Origin: Escherichia coli
GTDB lineage: Bacteria; Pseudomonadota; Gammaproteobacteria; Enterobacterales; Enterobacteriaceae
Length of the DNA stretch: 64,000 nucleotides
Direction: 5' to 3' (one strand)
Assembly: GCF_044647545.1 (NCBI RefSeq)
Contig: NZ_CP172818.1
Part shown: positions 14,288 to 58,273 of the stretch, piece by piece
How positions within the stretch are numbered: the first letter of the stretch is position 1
Layout: each line of letters begins with the position of its first letter
Made by a program: the position numbers and the translations under genes
Notes under the pieces: generated by a model
The model's database searches: none
Told to the model about the DNA's origin: nothing
What the model saw: the letters and a program-made list of their open reading frames with translations, nothing else

Positions 14288-14518
14288 TCAGACCCCGTTG
14301 GCAAGCCGCGTGGTTAACTCATCCATAAAATATCGCGCAATGGCGGGCATCCCCTTTCGCCCGGCAAATAAAGCATACAACGGTCTGGGTATGCCGCTCC
14401 ACGGTGCAAACAGGCGCACCAGTTCACCGTTCGCAAGCCCCTGTTTACAGGCAAATTGAGGCAATAACGCCACGCCATTCAACCCAACCGGGACGCGAAC
14501 TCGCCGAGCAAAATGCAT
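14288..14518 (-). pseudogene. yqfE: C-terminal fragment of a LysR-family regulator
   Basis: 76-aa ORF resembling only the C-terminal tail of a LysR-type effector domain; no N-terminal HTH portion upstream. Confidence 0.6.
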
Positions 14519-14584
14519 TAGCGCAAATCCCTGATCTTATTACACAAGTATTTAATCATTATCTTTAATATAAAAGGAGTTATT

Positions 14585-14845
14585 ATGTCTATTAAGCAAA
14601 ATTTATTTGCCGCATTATTTCTTTGCACTCTCACAGGACACGCATTTGCCGCAACCGAGATACACAAACCGGACAATAATCTTGAACAGTTATCAAAAGT
14701 GAGCATGTCCACACACAATAGCAATCCAGCGGGCGTTGAAAGCCAAATCAAAAGAGAAAGCGGAAGAGTTACAAGCCAGCAATTACTACATCAGTTCTTT
14801 CTCCGTAAAAATTATATCCACGCCACTGTAATTTTCTATAAATAG
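14585..14845 (+). CDS. Hypothetical small exported protein (86 aa)
   Basis: Strong SD (aaggag) 7 nt upstream of ATG; N-terminal signal-peptide-like segment MSIKQNLFAALFLCTLTGHAFAA. Confidence 0.45.
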   Translation: MSIKQNLFAALFLCTLTGHAFAATEIHKPDNNLEQLSKVSMSTHNSNPAGVESQIKRESGRVTSQQLLHQFFLRKNYIHATVIFYK

Positions 14846-15528
14846 CCCCTCTGTTTAACGGAAGCATGGAATTATTCCATGCTCCTCTGCCAAAATGAAA
14901 TAAAAAATGAAAAAAGCTAATCTTACAGGTACGTTGGTTTGCTTTGTCGCATGCCTTATTTTTTTGTCGTCCGGTGATATTTTTCGTGAAAAGCCAATCG
15001 CTCTAATATGGTTCCTTCGACAAAACATACTCTTTTTTACGGGAACTCTTGCGTGGTGTCTGATGACGCTGACGATGTGTTTATCGTTGCGTTCATCATG
15101 GCTTAACAAAGTGCTGGGCGGTCTGGATAAAGTATGGCGAATCACATAAGTGGGCAGGAATATGCGCCATAGCGTTTGCTTTCGCCCACTGGCTGGATGA
15201 AAAATTACCCCAGTTATTCGTCGCCTTTGGCTGGCTTACTCACCCTGGTAAAATCGTTGATATTAACCTGACGCCAGTACAAGAAAATTGGCTTCATGCG
15301 GGACTGTTAGCGGGTGAATGCGCAATGTTTATTATTATAGCGATGGTTTGCGTATCTCTTAGCAAAAGAGTTCCCTATCATTTATTTCATCTTGTTCACC
15401 GTTTGTTCCCCGTCTTTTATCTGGCAATTGCCTTTCATGTGTTTACTGCTTTGTTTAAATCATACTGGTGGAACTCCTGCTGCGTATTTATTAATTTTAA
15501 TTACTATTCCGGGCGTCTTTGCGGCTTT

Positions 15529-15537
15529 CATTTCGCT
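15529..15537. repeat. Left copy of 9-bp target-site duplication (catttcgct) flanking IS1
   Basis: Identical 9-mer directly abuts both IS1 ends. Confidence 0.85.
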
Positions 15538-16307
15538 GGTAATGACTCCAACTTACTGATAGTGTTTTATGTTCAGATAATGCCCGATGACTTTGTCATG
15601 CAGCTCCACCGATTTTGAGAACGACAGTGACTTCCGTCCCAGCCTTGCCAGATGTTGTCTCAGATTCAGGTTATGTCGCTCAATGCGCTGAGTGTAACGC
15701 TTGCTGATTACGTGCAGCTTTCCCTTCAGGCGGGATTCATACAGCGGCCAGCCATCCGTCATCCATACCACGACCTCAAAGGCCGACAGCAGGCTCAGAA
15801 GACGCTCCAGTGTGGCCAGAGTGCGTTCACCGAAGACGTGCCACAACCGTCCTCCGTATCCTGTCATACGCGTAAAACAGCCAGCGCTGACGTGATTTAG
15901 CACCGACGTAGCCCCACTGTTCGTCCATTTCAGCGCAGACAATCACATCACTGCCCGGCTGTATGCGCGAGGTTACCGACTGCGGCCTGAGTTTTTTAAT
16001 AAAGTGACGTAAAATCGTGTTGAGGCCAACGCCCATAATGCGGGCGGTCGCCCGGCATCCAACACCATTCATGGCCATATCAATGATTTTCTGGTGTGTA
16101 CCGGGTTGAGAAGCGGTGTAAGTGAACTGCAGTTGCCATGTTTTACGGCAGTGAGAGCAGAGATAGCGCTGATGTCCGGCAGTACTTTTACCGTTACGCA
16201 CCACGCCTTCAGTAGCTGAGCAGGAGGGACAACTGATGGAGATGGAAGCCACGGGAGCACCTCAAAAACACCATCATACACTAAATCAGTAAGTTGGCAC
16301 CATTACC
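15538..16307 (-). mobile_element. IS1-family insertion sequence (770 bp), divergent isoform
   Basis: Terminal inverted repeats ggtaatgactccaacttactgat / atcagtaagttggcaccattacc; InsA and InsB homologous ORFs on minus strand; flanked by 9-bp direct repeat. Confidence 0.92.
15553..16252 (-). pseudogene. insAB: IS1 insA-insB region; insA fused in-frame to insB' but insB then frameshifted (defective transposase)
   Basis: ORF 15827-16252 = [13 protein letters not shown]...[16 protein letters not shown]...[13 protein letters not shown]; 4-nt insertion at the A6C slippery site (cgtcactttattaaaaaactc) puts insA in the insB frame; a further indel (~2 nt) shifts frame so the rest of InsB is ORF 15553-15942. 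Confidence 0.8.
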
Positions 16308-16316
16308 CATTTCGCT
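16308..16316. repeat. Right copy of 9-bp target-site duplication (catttcgct) flanking IS1
   Basis: Identical to 15529-15537. Confidence 0.85.
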
Positions 16317-17082
16317 GCTGAAATTCAAACGGTAGTAAAAACAAGCATCAGGCTACCATTAAAAACATTGTTAACCATCCAGGACAAATTACCGAAGTCA
16401 CCCTGGAACTGGAACATGCCATCGACTATTCTCCGGGGCAGTTTGCATTCTTAACGTTCGCACACAGTAAAGAATCTCACCCTTTTACTATCGCTTCATA
16501 CACCAAAGAGAAGAACACGTTGCGCTTTGCCATCAAAAATTTAGGGGATTATACCTCTACCCTTGCATCCTCGATAAAAATCGGCCAGTCCGCCTTCGTT
16601 GAAGGGCCATGGGGAAAGTTTGATTTAGACTCTCCCTTGCTCCCACCAGGTCTGGATAGCAGGAGGCATCGGCATTACCCCCTTTATCGCCCAGCTTGAG
16701 TATCGTAAACATCATGGCGCGTCCTCTGTTCCTGTGGATCTCTGGTATTACGTCAGCCGAAGCGAGGATGCCTGGTATGTTGATAAACTGACCTCACTTT
16801 GTGCCCAGGCCAGGGTCACACTGCATCTGCTTGATGCGCATAAAGGTGAGCGCCTACAGGCGCACTATCTTACTGATAAAATAGCAAATAAAGGTGACAC
16901 CCATTTCTGGTTTTGCGGCCCACAGAGTTTTGCCAAAGCGCTCAGCAAAGGGTTATATGAAAATGGGATTGCCAGCCAAAACTTCCATTACGACCGTTTT
17001 TGTATGCGTTAAATGCTCTGTACCCAACGCAAAATTGTGTCATAGTGCAGGAAAAAGCATTTACCAGGAGCAGACAACAGCA

Positions 17083-18179: not shown

Positions 18180-20323
18180 ATGTCTAACGTGCAGGAGTGG
18201 CAACAGCTTGCCAACAAGGAATTGAGCCGTCGGGAGAAAACTGTCGACTCGCTGGTTCAGCAAACCGCGGAAGGGATCGCCATCAAGCCGCTGTATACCG
18301 AAGCCGATCTCGATAATCTGGAGGTGACAGGTACCCTTCCTGGTTTGCCCCCTACGTTCGTGGCCCGCGTGCCACTATGTATACCGCCCAACCGTGGACC
18401 ATCCGTCAGTATGCTGGTTTTTCAACAGCAAAAGAGTCCAACGCTTTTTATCGCCGTAACCTGGCCGCCGGGCAAAAAGGTCTTTCCGTTGCGTTTGACC
18501 TTGCCACCCACCGAGGCTACGACTCCGATAACCCGCGCGTGGCGGGCGACGTCGGCAAAGCGGGCGTTGCTATCGACACCGTGGAAGATATGAAAGTCCT
18601 GTTCGACCAGATCCCGCTGGATAAAATGTCGGTTTCGATGACCATGAATGGCGCAGTACTACCAGTACTGGCGTTTTATATTGTCGCCGCAGAAGAGCAA
18701 GGTGTTACACCCGATAAACTGACCGGCACCATTCAAAACGATATCCTCAAAGAGTATCTTTGCCGCAACACCTATATTTACCCGCCAAAACCGTCAATGC
18801 GTATTATCGCAGACATCATCGCCTGGTGTTCCGGCAACATGCCGCGATTTAATACCATCAGTATCAGCGGTTACCATATGGGTGAAGCGGGTGCCAACTG
18901 CGTGCAGCAGGTAGCATTTACGCTCGCTGATGGGATTGAGTACATCAAAGCAGCAATCTCCGCCGGGCTGAAAATTGATGACTTCGCTCCTCGCCTGTCG
19001 TTCTTCTTCGGCATTGGCATGGATCTGTTTATGAACGTCGCCATGTTGCGTGCGGCACGTTATTTATGGAGCGAAGCGGTCAGTGGATTTGGCGCACAGG
19101 ATCCGAAATCACTGGCGCTGCGTACCCACTGCCAGACCTCAGGCTGGAGCCTGACTGAACAGGATCCGTATAACAACGTTATACGCACCACCATTGAAGC
19201 ACTGGCTGCAACGCTGGGCGGTACTCAGTCACTGCATACCAACGCCTTTGATGAAGCGCTTGGTTTGCCTACCGATTTCTCAGCACGCATTGCCCGCAAT
19301 ACCCAGATCATCATTCAGGAAGAATCAGAACTCTGCCGCACCGTCGATCCACTGGCCGGATCCTATTACGTTGAATCGCTGACCGATCAAATCGTCAAAC
19401 AAGCCAGAGCCATTATCCAACAGATCGACGAAGCCGGTGGCATGGCGAAAGCGATCGAAGCAGGTCTGCCAAAACGAATGATCGAAGAGGCCTCAGCGCG
19501 CGAACAGTCGTTGATCGACCAGGGCAAGCGTGTCATCGTTGGTGTCAACAAGTACAAACTGGATCACGAAGACGAAACCGATGTACTTGAGATCGACAAC
19601 GTGATGGTGCGTAACGAGCAAATTGCTTCGCTGGAACGCATTCGCGCCACCCGTGATGATGCCGCCGTAACCGCCGCGTTGAACGCCCTGACTCACGCCG
19701 CACAGCATAACGAAAACCTGCTGGCTGCCGCTGTTAATGCCGCTCGCGTTCGCGCAACGCTTGGTGAAATTTCCGATGCACTGGAAGCGGCATTTGACCG
19801 TTATCTGGTGCCAAGCCAGTGTGTTACCGGCGTGATTGCGCAAAGCTATCATCAGTCTGAGAAATCGGCCACCGAGTTCGATGCCATTGTTGCGCAAACG
19901 GAGCAGTTCCTTGCCGACAATGGTCGTCGCCCGCGCATTCTGATCGCCAAAATGGGCCAGGATGGGCACGATCGCGGCGCGAAAGTGATCGCCAGCGCCT
20001 ATTCCGATCTCGGTTTCGACGTAGATTTAAGCCCGATGTTCTCTACACCTGAAGAGATCGCCCGCCTGGCAGTAGAAAACGACGTTCACGTAGTGGGCGC
20101 ATCTTCACTGGCTGCCGGTCATAAAACGCTGATCCCGGAACTGGTCGAAGCGCTGAAAAAATGGGGACGCGAAGATATCTGCGTGGTCGCGGGTGGCGTC
20201 ATTCCGCCGCAGGATTACGCCTTCCTGCAGGAGCGCGGCGTGGCGGCGATTTATGGTCCAGGTACGCCTATGCTCGACAGCGTGCGCGACGTACTGAATC
20301 TGATAAGCCAGCATCATGATTAA
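18180..20323 (+). pseudogene. scpA: Methylmalonyl-CoA mutase (sleeping beauty mutase) with a -1 frameshift after codon ~57
   Basis: N-terminus MSNVQEWQQLANKELSRREK...TGTLPGLPP in frame 0 (ORF 18159-18593), then conserved [30 protein letters not shown]... continues in frame 2 (ORF to 20323); shift occurs in the C5 run at 18348-18352. Confidence 0.8.
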
Positions 20324-27137: not shown

Positions 27138-27269
27138 TCAATATTCCTTTTCAACTGACTCAAAATGGAGAAATACACTCCGCCGCCTTATGACGGGCAG
27201 TCTGACAAGGGTAAACAATAAAGCATAATTTTGCCAAATAGATCACAGATTTCTCATCTGTATCCTCTG

Positions 27270-36485: not shown

Positions 36486-36779
36486 AAATTATCCTTATTT
36501 TATTTTTAGGGTACCGTCCGGCGGTAAAAATAAAATACTCGTGCGGTTTAATGAAAGCAATTGAGAAGAAAAACCCCATAAACCAAAATAATAAAACCTT
36601 AAATAACAACAATATGAAATTGATATTTTTAAAGTCAACTTTGTATTTGTTATATTTATCACAAAATCAACATTTTGTTTGTTATTGTATTTGTGATGCA
36701 TATCTCTATTTATTTATTGAATGTTCGAAAACATACTTTTCTAATGCAATGTTTTTTCGCTATACCCCTTTATAGATTC

Positions 36780-37321
36780 TGAATTCTCACCTGTCGGCTA
36801 TTTTCTCCTTACCTCATGTGACATATTCCCCATTTTACTCAAAAAAAATTTATATAAAAGCACCTTTTTCATAAACCTTATTTCCCCCAAAAAAATCTTT
36901 TTTTATCCCTTTGGGCGTTTTTCCTGTTTTTTCCCCCTTTTTTTCTTTTTTACCCCTTAAAAAAAGGAACGCGGCATTTTTTTGCCCTACGAAAAAATCG
37001 TAAAATTTGCCGAGCCGGGTCTGGGTTTTAAGATCCCGTTTTTGAAAAGGGGAAAAAAATTTCCACCCGTAATAAGGCGGGGGTTTATCAGGGATTAAAG
37101 CCTTCAACCCCCCACCAGAAACCGGCAAAAAAAAAAATTGAGTGAGCTTCCACATAAAAAATTCAGAAAAAGGCGCGGTTTATACCACCTACAACACCAT
37201 TGAAGCATTAAAAGATCGTCTGATTGTCCGTCAGTTGCCAACTCAACTGGAGAATTCCCATATACATACAACTACAAAACAACAAACATAAACAAAACCC
37301 ACAAAAAAAAATATCTCTAAA
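36780..37321. other. Compositionally aberrant homopolymer-rich non-coding segment (origin unresolved; possible assembly/synthetic artefact)
   Basis: Dense runs of A7-11, T5-9, C5-6, G5; no credible ORF, RBS or RNA fold; cmtB-tktA spacer is ~885 bp here versus a few hundred bp as I recall for K-12. Confidence 0.5.
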
Positions 37322-37350
37322 GTAATAAAAAGGGCCGCTTTCGCGGCCCT
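37322..37350 (-). terminator. Rho-independent terminator immediately downstream of tktA
   Basis: Minus-strand hairpin agggccgc-gaaa-gcggccct followed by ttttattac. Confidence 0.75.
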
Positions 37351-40399: not shown

Positions 40400-40441
40400 T
40401 TTATTACGCCGGATTTGACGCATAACGCATCTTATCCGGGC

Positions 40442-41362
40442 TTACTCGCCCTTTTTCGCCGCCTGAATATACAGCATTTCCAGCGCCAGCGTCGCCGCAG
40501 CCAGAGCGGTGATTTCCGACTGATCGTATGCCGGAGCCACTTCCACTACGTCCATCCCAACAATGTTGAGATCTTTCAGGCCGCGTACCAGTTTAATAGC
40601 GCGATCGGAGGTCAGGCCGCCAATTACTGGCGTACCTGTTCCCGGCGCGAAAGCAGGATCCAGGCAGTCGATATCAAAGGTCAGGTAAACCGGCATATCA
40701 CCTACAATCTGTTTCACCTGAGCGATAACGTCATCCACGCTGCGATCGTTCACCTGGCAGGCGTCCAGCACGGTAAAACCGTTGTCTTTATCAAACTCGG
40801 TACGAATACCAATCTGCACGGAATGATTCGGGTCGATCAGACCTTCTTTCGGCGCGGTATAGAACATGGTGCCGTGGTCAAATTCACAACCGTTAGCGTA
40901 GGTATCGGTGTGGGCGTCAAAGTGTACCAGCGCCATTTTACCGAAATGCTTCGCATGAGCACGCAGCAGCGGCAGCGTAACAAAGTGGTCACCACCGAAG
41001 GAGAGCATACGCTTACCGGCAGCCAGCAGCTTCTCGGCGTGCGCCTGCAGCTTCTCGCTCATCTCACGGGCATCTCCGAAGGCATATACCAGATCGCCGC
41101 AGTCCACGACGTTCAGGCGCTCACGCATGTCGAAATTCCACGGGAAGCGATTGTGTTCCCAGGCCAGATTCGTCGAAACCTGACGGATCGCTGCCGGACC
41201 GTGGCGACCACCCGCACGACCAGAAGTGGCCATATCGAACGGCACGCCAGTAATCACCCAGTCAGCATCGCTGTCATATGGCTGGAAGTTCATCGGCAGG
41301 CGTAAAAAACCAAAGGCGTTGGAAACCAGTGAGTTATCGTATTGATGACCTAAGGTGCTCAT
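40442..41362 (-). CDS. speB: Agmatinase
   Basis: 306-aa product [29 protein letters not shown]... Confidence 0.95.
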
Positions 41363-41425: not shown

Positions 41426-41528
41426 AAGGGTTGGATTTGCGAAACACAAGTATGCGCTAATTATCGCCTTAAATGAAAAGAGGGCCGCATCAAGGACTAA
41501 CACAGGTCCCATACCACCAAACTCCAAC

Positions 41529-43542
<2,014 letters not shown>

Positions 43543-51564: not shown

Positions 51565-51770
51565 TTTAAAAGCCTGGCGGATAGTCGTACCATCCCGCCA
51601 TCTTGCCGGATGCGGCGTGAACGCCTTATCCAGCACACATCTGGCAGCGGCTGTAGGTCTGATAAGACGCGTTAGCGTCGCATCAGACGTTTATTGCCGG
51701 GTGCTGCGTTTGTATGCCTGATAAGCGTAGCGCATCAGGCATATTTACTAAACTAATCAATCACTTTAGC
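51565..51770. repeat. REP/BIME cluster
   Basis: Palindromic units gccggatgcggcgtgaacgccttatccagc and gcctgataagcgtagcgcatcaggc. Confidence 0.8.
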
Positions 51771-54352: not shown

Positions 54353-54946
54353 ATGCAAAAAGTTGTCCTCGCAACCGGCAATGCCGGTAAAGTGCGTGAG
54401 CTGGCGTCGCTGCTTAGCGACTTCGGTCTTGATATCGTGGCCCAAACAGACCTCGGCGTAGATTCCGCTGAAGAAACCGGCCTGACCTTTATTGAAAACG
54501 CGATTCTGAAAGCGCGCCATGCGGCAAAAGTGACCGGTTTACCGGCAATTGCCGACGACTCCGGTCTGGCGGTAGATGCGCTGGGTGGCGCGCCGGGTAT
54601 TTACTCCGCGCGTTATTCCGGTGAAGACGCGACCGATCAAAAGAATCTGCAAAAACTGCTGGAAACGATGAAAGACGTACCGGACGACCAACGTCAGGCG
54701 CGTTTCCACTGCGTGCTGGTATATCTGCGTCACGCGGAAGATCCCACTCCGCTGGTATGCCACGGTAGCTGGCCAGGCGTGATTACTCGTGAACCAGCGG
54801 GCACTGGTGGCTTTGGTTATGATCCAATCTTCTTCGTACCTTCCGAAGGGAAAACCGCTGCCGAACTGACCCGCGAAGAAAAGAGCGCCATTTCCCACCG
54901 TGGTCAGGCGTTGAAACTGCTGCTGGACGCTTTACGTAATGGTTAA
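54353..54946 (+). CDS. rdgB: dITP/XTP pyrophosphatase
   Basis: 197-aa product [21 protein letters not shown]... Confidence 0.95.
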
Positions 54947-56075
54947 ATTACCGCCGCTGAGTCTCTACATTCACATCCCGTGGTGCGTGCAGAAATGCCC
55001 GTACTGCGATTTCAACTCTCACGCGTTGAAAGGAGAAGTGCCGCACGACGATTATGTTCAGCATCTGCTTAACGATCTGGACAACGATGTGGCTTACGCT
55101 CAGGGCCGTGAAGTAAAGACAATCTTTATTGGCGGTGGTACGCCGAGCCTGCTTTCCGGCCCGGCGATGCAAACGCTGCTGGACGGCGTGCGTGCGCGTT
55201 TGCCGCTGGCAGCGGATGCAGAAATTACTATGGAAGCGAACCCTGGTACGGTAGAAGCCGATCGCTTTGTCGATTATCAGCGTGCTGGTGTGAACCGCAT
55301 CTCTATTGGTGTGCAGAGTTTTAGCGAAGAAAAGCTGAAACGACTTGGGCGCATTCATGGCCCGCAAGAAGCGAAACGAGCTGCGAAGCTGGCGAGCGGT
55401 TTAGGGTTACGTAGCTTTAACCTTGATTTGATGCATGGGCTGCCGGATCAATCACTGGAAGAGGCGCTAGGCGATCTGCGCCAGGCTATTGAACTGAATC
55501 CGCCGCATCTTTCCTGGTATCAACTGACCATCGAACCTAATACGCTGTTTGGCTCTCGCCCGCCGGTGCTGCCGGACGACGATGCGTTGTGGGATATATT
55601 CGAACAGGGGCATCAGTTATTAACCGCAGCGGGCTATCAGCAGTATGAAACATCCGCTTACGCCAAACCAGGTTATCAGTGCCAGCACAATCTCAACTAC
55701 TGGCGTTTTGGCGACTACATCGGTATTGGCTGCGGCGCGCACGGCAAAGTGACCTTCCCGGATGGGCGCATTCTGCGTACCACCAAAACGCGTCATCCGC
55801 GTGGTTTTATGCAGGGAAGATATCTGGAAAGCCAGCGTGATGTCGAAGCCGCAGATAAGCCGTTTGAGTTCTTTATGAATCGCTTCCGTCTGTTGGAAGC
55901 CGCGCCGCGCGTGGAGTTTAGCCAGTATACTGGCCTTTCTGAAGAAGTTATTCGCTCTCAGTTAGACGAGGCCATCGCTCAGGGTTATCTCACAGAATGT
56001 GCGGATTACTGGCAGATAACGGAACATGGTAAATTATTCTTAAACTCACTTCTTGAATTATTCCTCGCTGAGTAA
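54939..56075 (+). CDS. hemW: Radical SAM heme chaperone HemW
   Basis: 378-aa product with CxxxCxxC ([14 protein letters not shown]). Confidence 0.9.
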
Positions 56076-57265
56076 TCATTAATGCCGCATGCGGCGTTAA
56101 TCACTTCTATAATAAATATAATTATATATTAAACATATATTAAAATAACACAACAATAATATTCTTCAATCAAAAATAAACAAAAACACACGATGAACCG
56201 AACAACATGCAAAAACAAATCACATCTCAAAAATTTATAACACTCTTCCCCTCCAACAACGAAAACAAAGAAAAATACGTTAAAAAACAAAAAATATCGA
56301 AACAGAAAAACGAAAAAAAAATAAAGTAATGAATCACCACACGAGAACAAGAAAAAAACAACAAAATATATACTAATAACACAGTAGGAAAGGAATAAGA
56401 ATCAACAAAGAAATTTTTACCATCATCAAACGATAACAAACAACCGAAGAGGGAGATAGTTGCCACACCGACACAGAACATCTCTCCACATCACAACAAT
56501 AACAGGTAGCGGAGCACCCCCAATAACCAAAACACAGACCCATACTTGACAACCAGAACAAAAAAACACAACGACAAAAACCAAACAACGAAGAATGAAA
56601 AATGATAAAGAAGAAATTGAATAATTAACACTATCACCCCTACATCAAACTAGAAAAGAAATCGTTGTTAGATATGCGCGGTGTGGTGGTCCTGTGATGC
56701 GCGAACTAGGCGTGACGCCTTTTCTGTCGCCGTCATGCTTGCTCTGGTTGTATGCGTAGTCTGATAAGACGCTCCAAACCACAAAAGCACAGCATCCCAT
56801 TCAGACCAAAGAAGGTTATGATTGCCGGCATTTTCTACCGCTGTCAACGTCTCATCTTGTTATAACTGGATTACTGATACCGCCCTCAAACGTGTTAATT
56901 GTTTTTCCCTACACTGCGCGTTTCTAGCACGCTATTAGCGGGATATGCAAGGGACTAAGAGTCGCGGTAAAAACCGGCATATCAAACGCGGCTACCCGCT
57001 TCAGAAAAAGCAACCTCCAGGCCTAAAGCGTTCGACCTACCAAGTTCTCGTCAAGGCGGCATCGGCGGCATTTTACGCAACGAAGGCCGATCTTCACAAT
57101 TATGATTACCGGGAATAAAATCGCGATTTACCCAAACGATCGAACGGTTACAAATAATTCGCACCGCAAACCAACAATCCAAAAACTAGGATTCAAACCC
57201 ACCAAATAAAAAAAAAAAAAAAAAGGAAAAACAAAAAAAAAAACAACAAAAAAAAAAAAAAGAAA
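56076..57265. other. ~1.2 kb non-coding segment of aberrant composition: A/C-rich block (~56100-56640), ORF-free block with REP-like fragment (~56640-57180), A-rich tail (57181-57265)
   Basis: Strong strand-asymmetric A+C bias with very little G/T in the first block; runs A17, A11, A14 abutting yggM stop; only low-complexity ORFs in the track; hemW-yggM spacer is <100 bp in K-12 as I recall. Confidence 0.5.
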
Positions 57266-58273
57266 TTACTTAATCACACCATTGCGCCGCAATTGTTCGG
57301 TATCTTTTTTCCAGCGTTCATTAGCCTGGTTGATATCGTCAATTTTCATCAAAATCGTGACTTTTTTACTGTTTATTTCTGAAACTTTCATCGTTAACGG
57401 ATATTGCCCTTTTTCGAGCGTTATCCAGTCATCCTGCAATTTACGGCTAAGTTTTTGTGATTGCAGGAAAGTCTGTCGCCGTTGTTCGTTGATATCGAAA
57501 TCTCGCTTCTGCTGAATCGGCACTTCATAACACTCTTCACTCTGTTTATGACATGCCGCAATCGCCGGTTGATAAACCTCTTTGTCATATTTAACCGCGA
57601 ACGCCTCGCTATCGTTCTGTTTATTAAACTCATCACGCTGTTGGTGAATTTTTTTAAAGGCGTCTTCGCGGGTCATTTGCTTACCATTTGCATCTTTTCC
57701 CCAATATGCATCCGCTGCTTTCTGCGCCGCCACCATTTGCTTATCAAGCGCTTTCACTTCCTTTTCCAGCGCAGGAATCGAGTTCTTCTGGGTATTCAAC
57801 GCAGTCTCAAGCTGACTAAAGCGATAATTGAAATCTTCGCTATTCACGATCAGATATTTATTATTCGTTTTGATATCGTCGACCACCCGCCCACGATCGC
57901 TGGCTGCCGCCTGAAAAGAGTAAAAGTTCACCGACCAGCCAGACGCGGGCGTTCCTTTACTGGTTAACATCGCCGAGAATTTTACCGGTTTATCTTTCGT
58001 CCAGGTCTGTTCGAGCAGTTCGTAATCTGCCAACTGACCGACCCAGGTATAGAGATCGTCACTGGAAGATACATCGCCTTCCGCTGACCAGGTGGCCTGA
58101 TTACCCTTAGCATCAAGATTTTTTAAGCTGATGGCATCAAGCTTGAGAATGCCGTGATACTGCTTTTTGAATTGATCTTTTAAGATATTTTCAGTTGGCG
58201 ATTCGCCATCTGCCCAGACATTACCAGTCATCAACATAAGCAGCGCCGTGCCAACAATCCATTGCTTTTTCAC
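57266..58273 (-). CDS. yggM: Periplasmic protein YggM
   Basis: 335-aa product with signal peptide MKKQWIVGTALLMLMTGNVWA. Confidence 0.85.
   Translation of the reverse strand: MKKQWIVGTALLMLMTGNVWADGESPTENILKDQFKKQYHGILKLDAISLKNLDAKGNQATWSAEGDVSSSDDLYTWVGQLADYELLEQTWTKDKPVKFSAMLTSKGTPASGWSVNFYSFQAAASDRGRVVDDIKTNNKYLIVNSEDFNYRFSQLETALNTQKNSIPALEKEVKALDKQMVAAQKAADAYWGKDANGKQMTREDAFKKIHQQRDEFNKQNDSEAFAVKYDKEVYQPAIAACHKQSEECYEVPIQQKRDFDINEQRRQTFLQSQKLSRKLQDDWITLEKGQYPLTMKVSEINSKKVTILMKIDDINQANERWKKDTEQLRRNGVIK

Follow-up and report, generated by a model that had tools for sequence, protein, structure and literature searches.

TRAP transporters of the DctPQM type are tripartite ATP-independent periplasmic transporters, and the E. 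coli strains FDAARGOS_497 and 4973 carry an operon for one of them between hemW and yggM, where dctP, dctQ and dctM, encoding a substrate-binding protein, a small permease and a large permease, lie in a spacer of 3203 bp. One example of the operon (NZ_CP103468.1, 920109-922944) encodes the proteins WP_000784004.1, WP_000577034.1 and WP_000378954.1. By comparison with NCBIfam models, the binding protein belongs to TIGR00787 (dctP; 285.7 bits against a cut-off of 175) and the large permease to TIGR00786 (dctM; 473.9 bits against a cut-off of 268), and the small permease weakly resembles YiaM. The operon is carried by 1492 of 5426 complete E. coli genomes (27%), and in 1486 of these 1492 carriers it is at least 95% identical to the copy of strain 4973. 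Divergence is of the ordinary kind in all of the 1461 genomes that hold at least 80% of the operon, with no case of decay like that described below. A literature search on the TRAP locus between hemW and yggM returned nothing specific to the locus.

E. coli K-12 is without the TRAP operon, and its hemW-yggM spacer corresponds to a repeat that lies at another place in the window, by which we mean the whole stretch of 64,000 nucleotides of E. coli DNA analyzed here (contig NZ_CP172818.1). This repeat, in the ruvX-yggR spacer at 51603-51704, is 92% identical to the K-12 hemW-yggM spacer sequence. A preliminary description of the window, which took K-12 as its point of comparison, had given a K-12 spacer of well under 100 bp; the spacer is indeed shorter than in the window, but it measures 154 bp. 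K-12 is the wrong reference for judging the novelty of the hemW-yggM spacer.

In the window, hemW (54939-56075, plus strand) and yggM (57266-58273, minus strand) are intact open reading frames of 378 and 335 amino acids, and hemW is identical to that of strain 4973 through its stop codon. The convergent spacer between them extends from 56076 to 57265, the yggM stop codon beginning at 57266, and its 1190 bp agree with the length first reported for it. Its composition lies far from that of the window, as a comparison with the background confirmed: A+C amounts to 74.7% at 56130-56670 and to 89% in the final 85 bp of the spacer, compared to 51% in the whole window (mean 0.51, sd 0.06, in 100-bp windows). 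The first ~540 bp of the spacer were thus correctly described as A+C-rich on the plus strand, but the accompanying statement that they contain almost no G or T was too strong, as G+T reaches 25% at 56130-56670. The A17, A11 and A14 runs reported at the end of the spacer are present at 57208-57224, 57233-57243 and 57248-57261, the last of them stopping 4 nt short of the yggM stop codon. By our own arithmetic, only about 0.01 A runs of at least 11 would be expected in 64 kb at 25% A, and these runs are therefore not due to chance. The open reading frames of the spacer are, as had been proposed, low-complexity shadows of 40-84 amino acids, with none longer than 84.

The complete genome nearest to the window is that of E. 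coli strain 4973, to which the flanks of the spacer are ~99.95-100% identical. A megablast search of the region against the 5426 complete E. coli genomes matched part of the insert to the TRAP small and large permease genes; the recognizable permease gene sequence, kept at 56713-57137, had been missed by the preliminary description. The last stretch that aligns well to the reference after hemW is a terminator-like palindrome at 56071-56108, found by an inverted-repeat scan. This hairpin differs from strain 4973 at five places between 56086 and 56097 and still forms a 22-nt palindrome with 82% complementarity; the differences may represent natural variation or mark where the corruption sets in. 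Beyond it, the insert at 56109-57265 (1157 bp) stands for 3168 bp of the strain 4973 reference, a collapse of ~2.7-fold in which 2011 of the 3168 bases are missing. As many as 1132 of the 1157 insert bases (97.8%) form an ordered subsequence of the reference, compared to 1075 when the reference is reversed.

On the plus strand, the A/C-rich block at 56109-56712 renders the hemW-dctP spacer, dctP and the beginning of dctQ with losses, collapsed ~2.2-fold from 1349 bp in the reference to 604 bp, and dctP can no longer be recognized in it by BLAST. We compared the block with the reference in four-letter global alignment and common-subsequence tests, with block shuffles and reversal as controls. 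The global alignment scored 508, compared to 437-443 (sd 10-11) for the block shuffles and 423 for the reversed sequence, and the longest common subsequence took in 560 of the 604 bases, ~6 sd above the 538 (sd 3.7) of the controls; a common-subsequence test limited to A and C, a two-letter alphabet, is saturated (780/781 versus 778 in the controls). Base counts in the block relative to the reference are 307/428 for A, 123/270 for C, 102/381 for T and 72/270 for G. The block is followed by a 51-bp island of dctQ (56713-56763, plus strand) that is 96% identical to the reference and in which tblastn recovers the 10 residues 16-25 of DctQ. A 24-bp junction (56764-56787, plus strand), which fills the gap between colinear matches at reference positions 40568 and 41356, then replaces 787 bp of the reference, comprising the remainder of dctQ and the 5′ portion of dctM. 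In the dctM fragment (56788-57205, plus strand), near-identity to the reference at 56788-56900 gives way to a progressive dropout of T and G and then of C; the colinear matches span 56788-57032 (~80% identity, with many gaps) and 57103-57137 (90%). The fragment yields DctM residues 128-197 by tblastn (E = 3e-11), a piece of ~70 residues after which the frame changes. Apart from this piece and the 10-residue piece of DctQ, tblastn of the insert for TRAP proteins found nothing, and no gene is intact. The final segment (57206-57265, plus strand), which contains the A17, A11 and A14 runs, is the remainder of the last ~380 bp of the reference, that is, the 3′ end of dctM and a 55-bp spacer. The stretch from 57205 to 57265 consists of 88.5% A (~54/61), compared to 94 A in 377 bases of the matching reference. 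Identity returns abruptly at the yggM stop codon, and the first 185 bp from there are 100% identical to the reference. The place of the insert between hemW and yggM and its colinearity show that it derives from the resident TRAP operon, of which three intact DctP, DctQ and DctM genes are not to be found.

The loss of bases depends on the base and on the strand. From 56900 onward, T and G on the plus strand are deleted at a rising rate, followed by C, until A alone is left. We counted the outcome for each base from 56788, where the alignment is anchored well enough. In 60-bp reference bins along the dctM fragment, retention of G and T falls from 96% to 14%, the successive counts being 25/26, 31/33, 24/38, 17/33 and 17/30, and then 19/39, 14/36, 14/32, 5/37 and 5/35. 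Retention of A and C is at least 68% in all of these bins, and over the whole fragment 93% of A, 83% of C, 54% of G and 47% of T are retained (chi-square p = 4e-22). Since almost only A is kept beyond ~57205, the poly(A) end is the end-point of the dropout and not a separate feature. Transition hypermutation by deaminases (G to A, T to C) was considered and rejected, given that the G/T losses in the dctM fragment comprise 162 deletions and 8 substitutions.

We also scanned the window for A/C-rich windows and long homopolymers, which flagged two further sites with the same kind of anomaly, neither of which the preliminary description had picked up. Between cmtB and tkt, a prohibitin-family gene that strain 4973 has and K-12 lacks is garbled at 36833-37327 (plus strand, by alignment to strain 4973) from its ribosome-binding site to its stop codon, and the terminator downstream is intact. 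Of the 63 substitutions at this locus, 61 copy the adjacent base, and the mean homopolymer run is 2.22, compared to 1.41 in the reference; a perfect island of 85 bp is followed by 486 bp reduced to a 57-bp A/C-rich stretch that ends in A9. Between speB and speA, 899 bp are reduced to 90 bp at 41476-41565 (plus strand), ending in A35. The content lost here is a hypothetical gene of 243 amino acids on the minus strand together with the 3′ region of speA; relative to the lost gene, the A35 run (41530-41564) lies on the antisense strand, and the garbled block ends where the stop codon of speA is reached. At all three loci, a run of A on the plus strand stands just before the abrupt recovery, whatever the strand of the gene. 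The window thus carries at three independent loci an error signature that is absent from its relatives, as an artefact would. The form of the noise differs between stretches: homopolymers are smoothed at 36833-37170, G and T drop out at 56900-57205, and the patch at 56668-56712 is rich in G and T. That the damage takes in all DNA absent from K-12 does not hold as an exact rule, since 36576-36832 is absent from K-12 and yet intact.

The preliminary description had suggested that the segment be sought in other finished genomes, and among the 5426 complete E. coli genomes searched by megablast none covers at least 80% of the region. An exact 49-mer from the insert had no matches in GTDB genome contigs or in JGI metagenome contigs. 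When the A/C-rich half was searched by BLAST in distant mode against E. coli genomes, no match emerged, but the low-complexity filter was on, which makes this negative a weak one. BLAST against phages found no match for the insert; against plasmids, the TRAP part was matched and the A/C-rich block was not. A repeat scan detected no terminal inverted repeats, flanking direct repeats or target duplication at the insert, its only hits being the hemW palindrome and a 20-nt pair at chance level, and the repeat and tandem-repeat scans together showed A-rich self-similarity only, with no element-like termini. The terminal repeats, target duplication and transposase or integrase gene of a mobile element are missing, as are real open reading frames. 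In a search of Rfam 15 with a permissive E-value, the one match, at the poly(A) end, was to CrcZ and reached 16.8 bits, where the gathering score is 95 (E = 0.062), and no family, including group II introns and sRNAs, matched the insert near its gathering score. The insert contains no reverse transcriptase-like open reading frame.

Apart from the three blocks, the window matches strain 4973 at 99.95-100% identity, and the flanks differ from it at 8 positions in ~21 kb. The accessory island between argP and rpiA (14481-17026), which holds YdgH-like, ferric reductase-like, IS1 and FAD-binding oxidoreductase genes, shows the damage in a milder form, with 17 small differences in ~2.5 kb, mostly indels outside homopolymers that break reading frames, compared to 1 in 13.5 kb of the adjacent core. 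The IS1 insertion is specific to the lineage of the window and was found in only 33 genomes; the several differences in this IS1 copy indicate that fidelity is not a matter of how widespread a sequence is. At 14480/14481, a deletion of 1346 bp relative to strain 4973 takes out the larger part of a LysR regulator gene and an azoreductase gene. The junction coincides with that of the K-12 yqfE pseudogene, yet the flanking SNPs are like those of strain 4973; the deletion could be a natural allele, a product of recombination or a reference-guided artefact. At 18349, the methylmalonyl-CoA mutase gene scpA has lost 1 bp (C6 to C5) and is split into open reading frames of 144 and 648 amino acids; homopolymer-length differences of this kind are produced by long-read assemblies. 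The bglA-gcvP spacer has 3 bases at 1008-1010 in place of 101 bp of strain 4973. Intergenic deletions of 1-8 bp relative to strain 4973, some of them beside hairpins, occur at 27265-27268, 36563, 40400 and 40440; that at 36563 is the K-12 state, that at 27265 is unique to the window, and the K-12 spacer differs at 40400. Three substitutions in ansB (58617, 58630 and 58888), as compared with the closest genomes, lie within 271 bp and are all towards A on the plus strand. One of them, T274S, matches K-12 and the other two are synonymous; the top-listed complete genomes for ansB score the same as strain 4973, which carries the three mismatches. On the basis of these ansB SNPs, the remainder of the window looks like sequence of a genuine isolate. 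That the whole window was invented by a machine is disfavored by the IS1 insertion, shared with so few genomes, and by SNPs that are mostly synonymous.

Taken together, these data lead us to conclude, with a probability of about 0.88, that the text of the spacer is a corrupted rendering of an ordinary dctP-dctQ-dctM operon and that the damage lies in the sequence record and not in the biology, which supports the technical artefact that the preliminary description had offered as one of its two readings and identifies it as a known operon altered by strand- and base-specific errors that recur at strain-variable loci. A non-biological origin is indicated by the 8 flank differences in ~21 kb, which leave no time for the loss of more than 2000 bases; by a loss that discriminates, on one strand only, between T and A and between G and C; by a smooth directional gradient that leads to a run of a single base and is followed by abrupt recovery; and by the lack of any such allele in the 1492 carriers and of any matching text in the collections searched. 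No known mutational process accounts for a dropout that is specific to strand and base next to flanks that are nearly identical. The real locus would then be an ordinary dctP-dctQ-dctM operon between hemW and yggM in this E. coli lineage, and the corruption would act on it like a lossy channel running from left to right on the plus strand, in which bases of the reference are lost instead of being altered, with T and G hit hardest, then C, and A least. The dropout rate would climb until A alone remained, giving the poly(A) runs, and near-perfect identity would resume suddenly once the next conserved gene was reached. The technical cause of the damage is one that we infer from its pattern only. 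Its source may have been unpolished, low-quality, read-like sequence that bridged strain-specific DNA during assembly or consensus building, or else a step of in-silico alteration or generation, for example of the garbled segments alone; read-like noise and in-silico alteration could equally be the cause. Against an artefact count the avoidance of conserved genes by the damage, the lack of one uniform noise channel across the garbled loci, and the genuine-isolate character of the remaining window. Uniformly noisy sequencing alone is insufficient to explain damage confined to strain-variable DNA, which needs an extra assumption such as reference- or homology-guided polishing, gap bridging, a mixed-strain consensus or deliberate alteration.

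If the text is instead real DNA, the locus might be a naturally decayed pseudo-operon in which the TRAP genes were inactivated and then suffered many small, A-biased deletions. Damage restricted to dispensable, strain-variable genes is what relaxed selection predicts, and the coincidence of the 14480/14481 deletion junction with that of the K-12 yqfE pseudogene means that some of the structural differences may be natural. Nevertheless, we regard such decay as very unlikely, since the nearly unchanged flanks allow no time for it, deletion from double-stranded DNA cannot tell a T:A from an A:T pair although the losses are of T and G on one strand, the dropout rises smoothly and ends sharply at a stop codon, and none of the 1461 genomes with at least 80% of the operon shows anything similar. 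A highly improbable account is that the accessory genes were replaced in the laboratory by engineered or synthetic DNA, for example a designed A/C spacer of low structure or a barcode: the sequence is unique to this record and its boundaries fall at or near those of genes (the yggM stop codon, the speA stop codon, and the ribosome-binding site and stop codon of the prohibitin-family gene), but a spacer made by design would not take the form of a noisy subsequence, colinear with the gene it replaces, with islands and graded dropout, and cloning scars, recombination sites and marker remnants are all missing, the repeat and Rfam scans being empty. We also think it extremely improbable that the text is real through a process in this strain that erodes dispensable, strain-variable genes by strand-specific, base-selective skipping, for example through rounds of error-prone copying in which T and G of one strand are skipped and the locus is then replaced; if true, such erosion would leave A-rich remnants beside untouched core genes. 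The other reading of the preliminary description, an unusual acquired element, is barely credible, whether as a new non-coding element between hemW and yggM or as a retro-copied, polyadenylated transcript. The poly(A) does lie at the sense-strand 3′ end of both the TRAP operon and the prohibitin-family gene, and the match to CrcZ, an A-rich sRNA, speaks faintly for an element, although it is driven by composition. However, the A35 run at the third locus is antisense to the lost gene, so that the polarity follows the plus strand of the record and not transcription, as it would in a retro-copied transcript; there is no reverse transcriptase, intact open reading frame, terminal or target-site repeat or Rfam family; and the content is that of the operon resident at this site, with which it is colinear, and was not brought in from elsewhere. 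Nor did the searches described above find such an element at other loci or in other genomes.

Under the artefact reading, the insert has no function as an element, and the operon of the organism itself is most likely normal. Our verdict is that the insert is not a real feature, and the operon that underlies it is common and already annotated. The finding matters mainly for quality control, as the record contains at least three garbled strain-variable loci along with frameshifts in an accessory island. Calls of gene content, pseudogenes or a novel intergenic element made from GCF_044647545.1 would mislead, and the non-core regions of the record are unreliable until they have been checked against reads.

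Compared with the loci and processes that are known, the insert stands closest to the DctPQM operon, with which it has position and orientation in common and whose dctQ and dctM remnants it keeps in colinear order; it differs in retaining only 1157 of 3168 bp and no intact gene. Natural alleles of the operon are at least 95% identical, so that natural variation among the carriers is far smaller than the damage in the window, whose losses are specific to base and strand. The K-12 spacer lies between the same flanking genes, and only the first ~25 bp after hemW are common to it and the insert. Low-quality base-calling and consensus artefacts turn missed signals into deletions, blur homopolymers and run out at read ends. 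The garbled loci resemble them in the directional decay of quality, the base-specific deletions and the substitutions that copy a neighboring base (61/63), as does the window in the run-out into a homopolymer and in the C6-to-C5 frameshift in scpA. Raw read noise by itself does not account for the confinement of the damage to strain-variable DNA or for the return of identity at gene boundaries.
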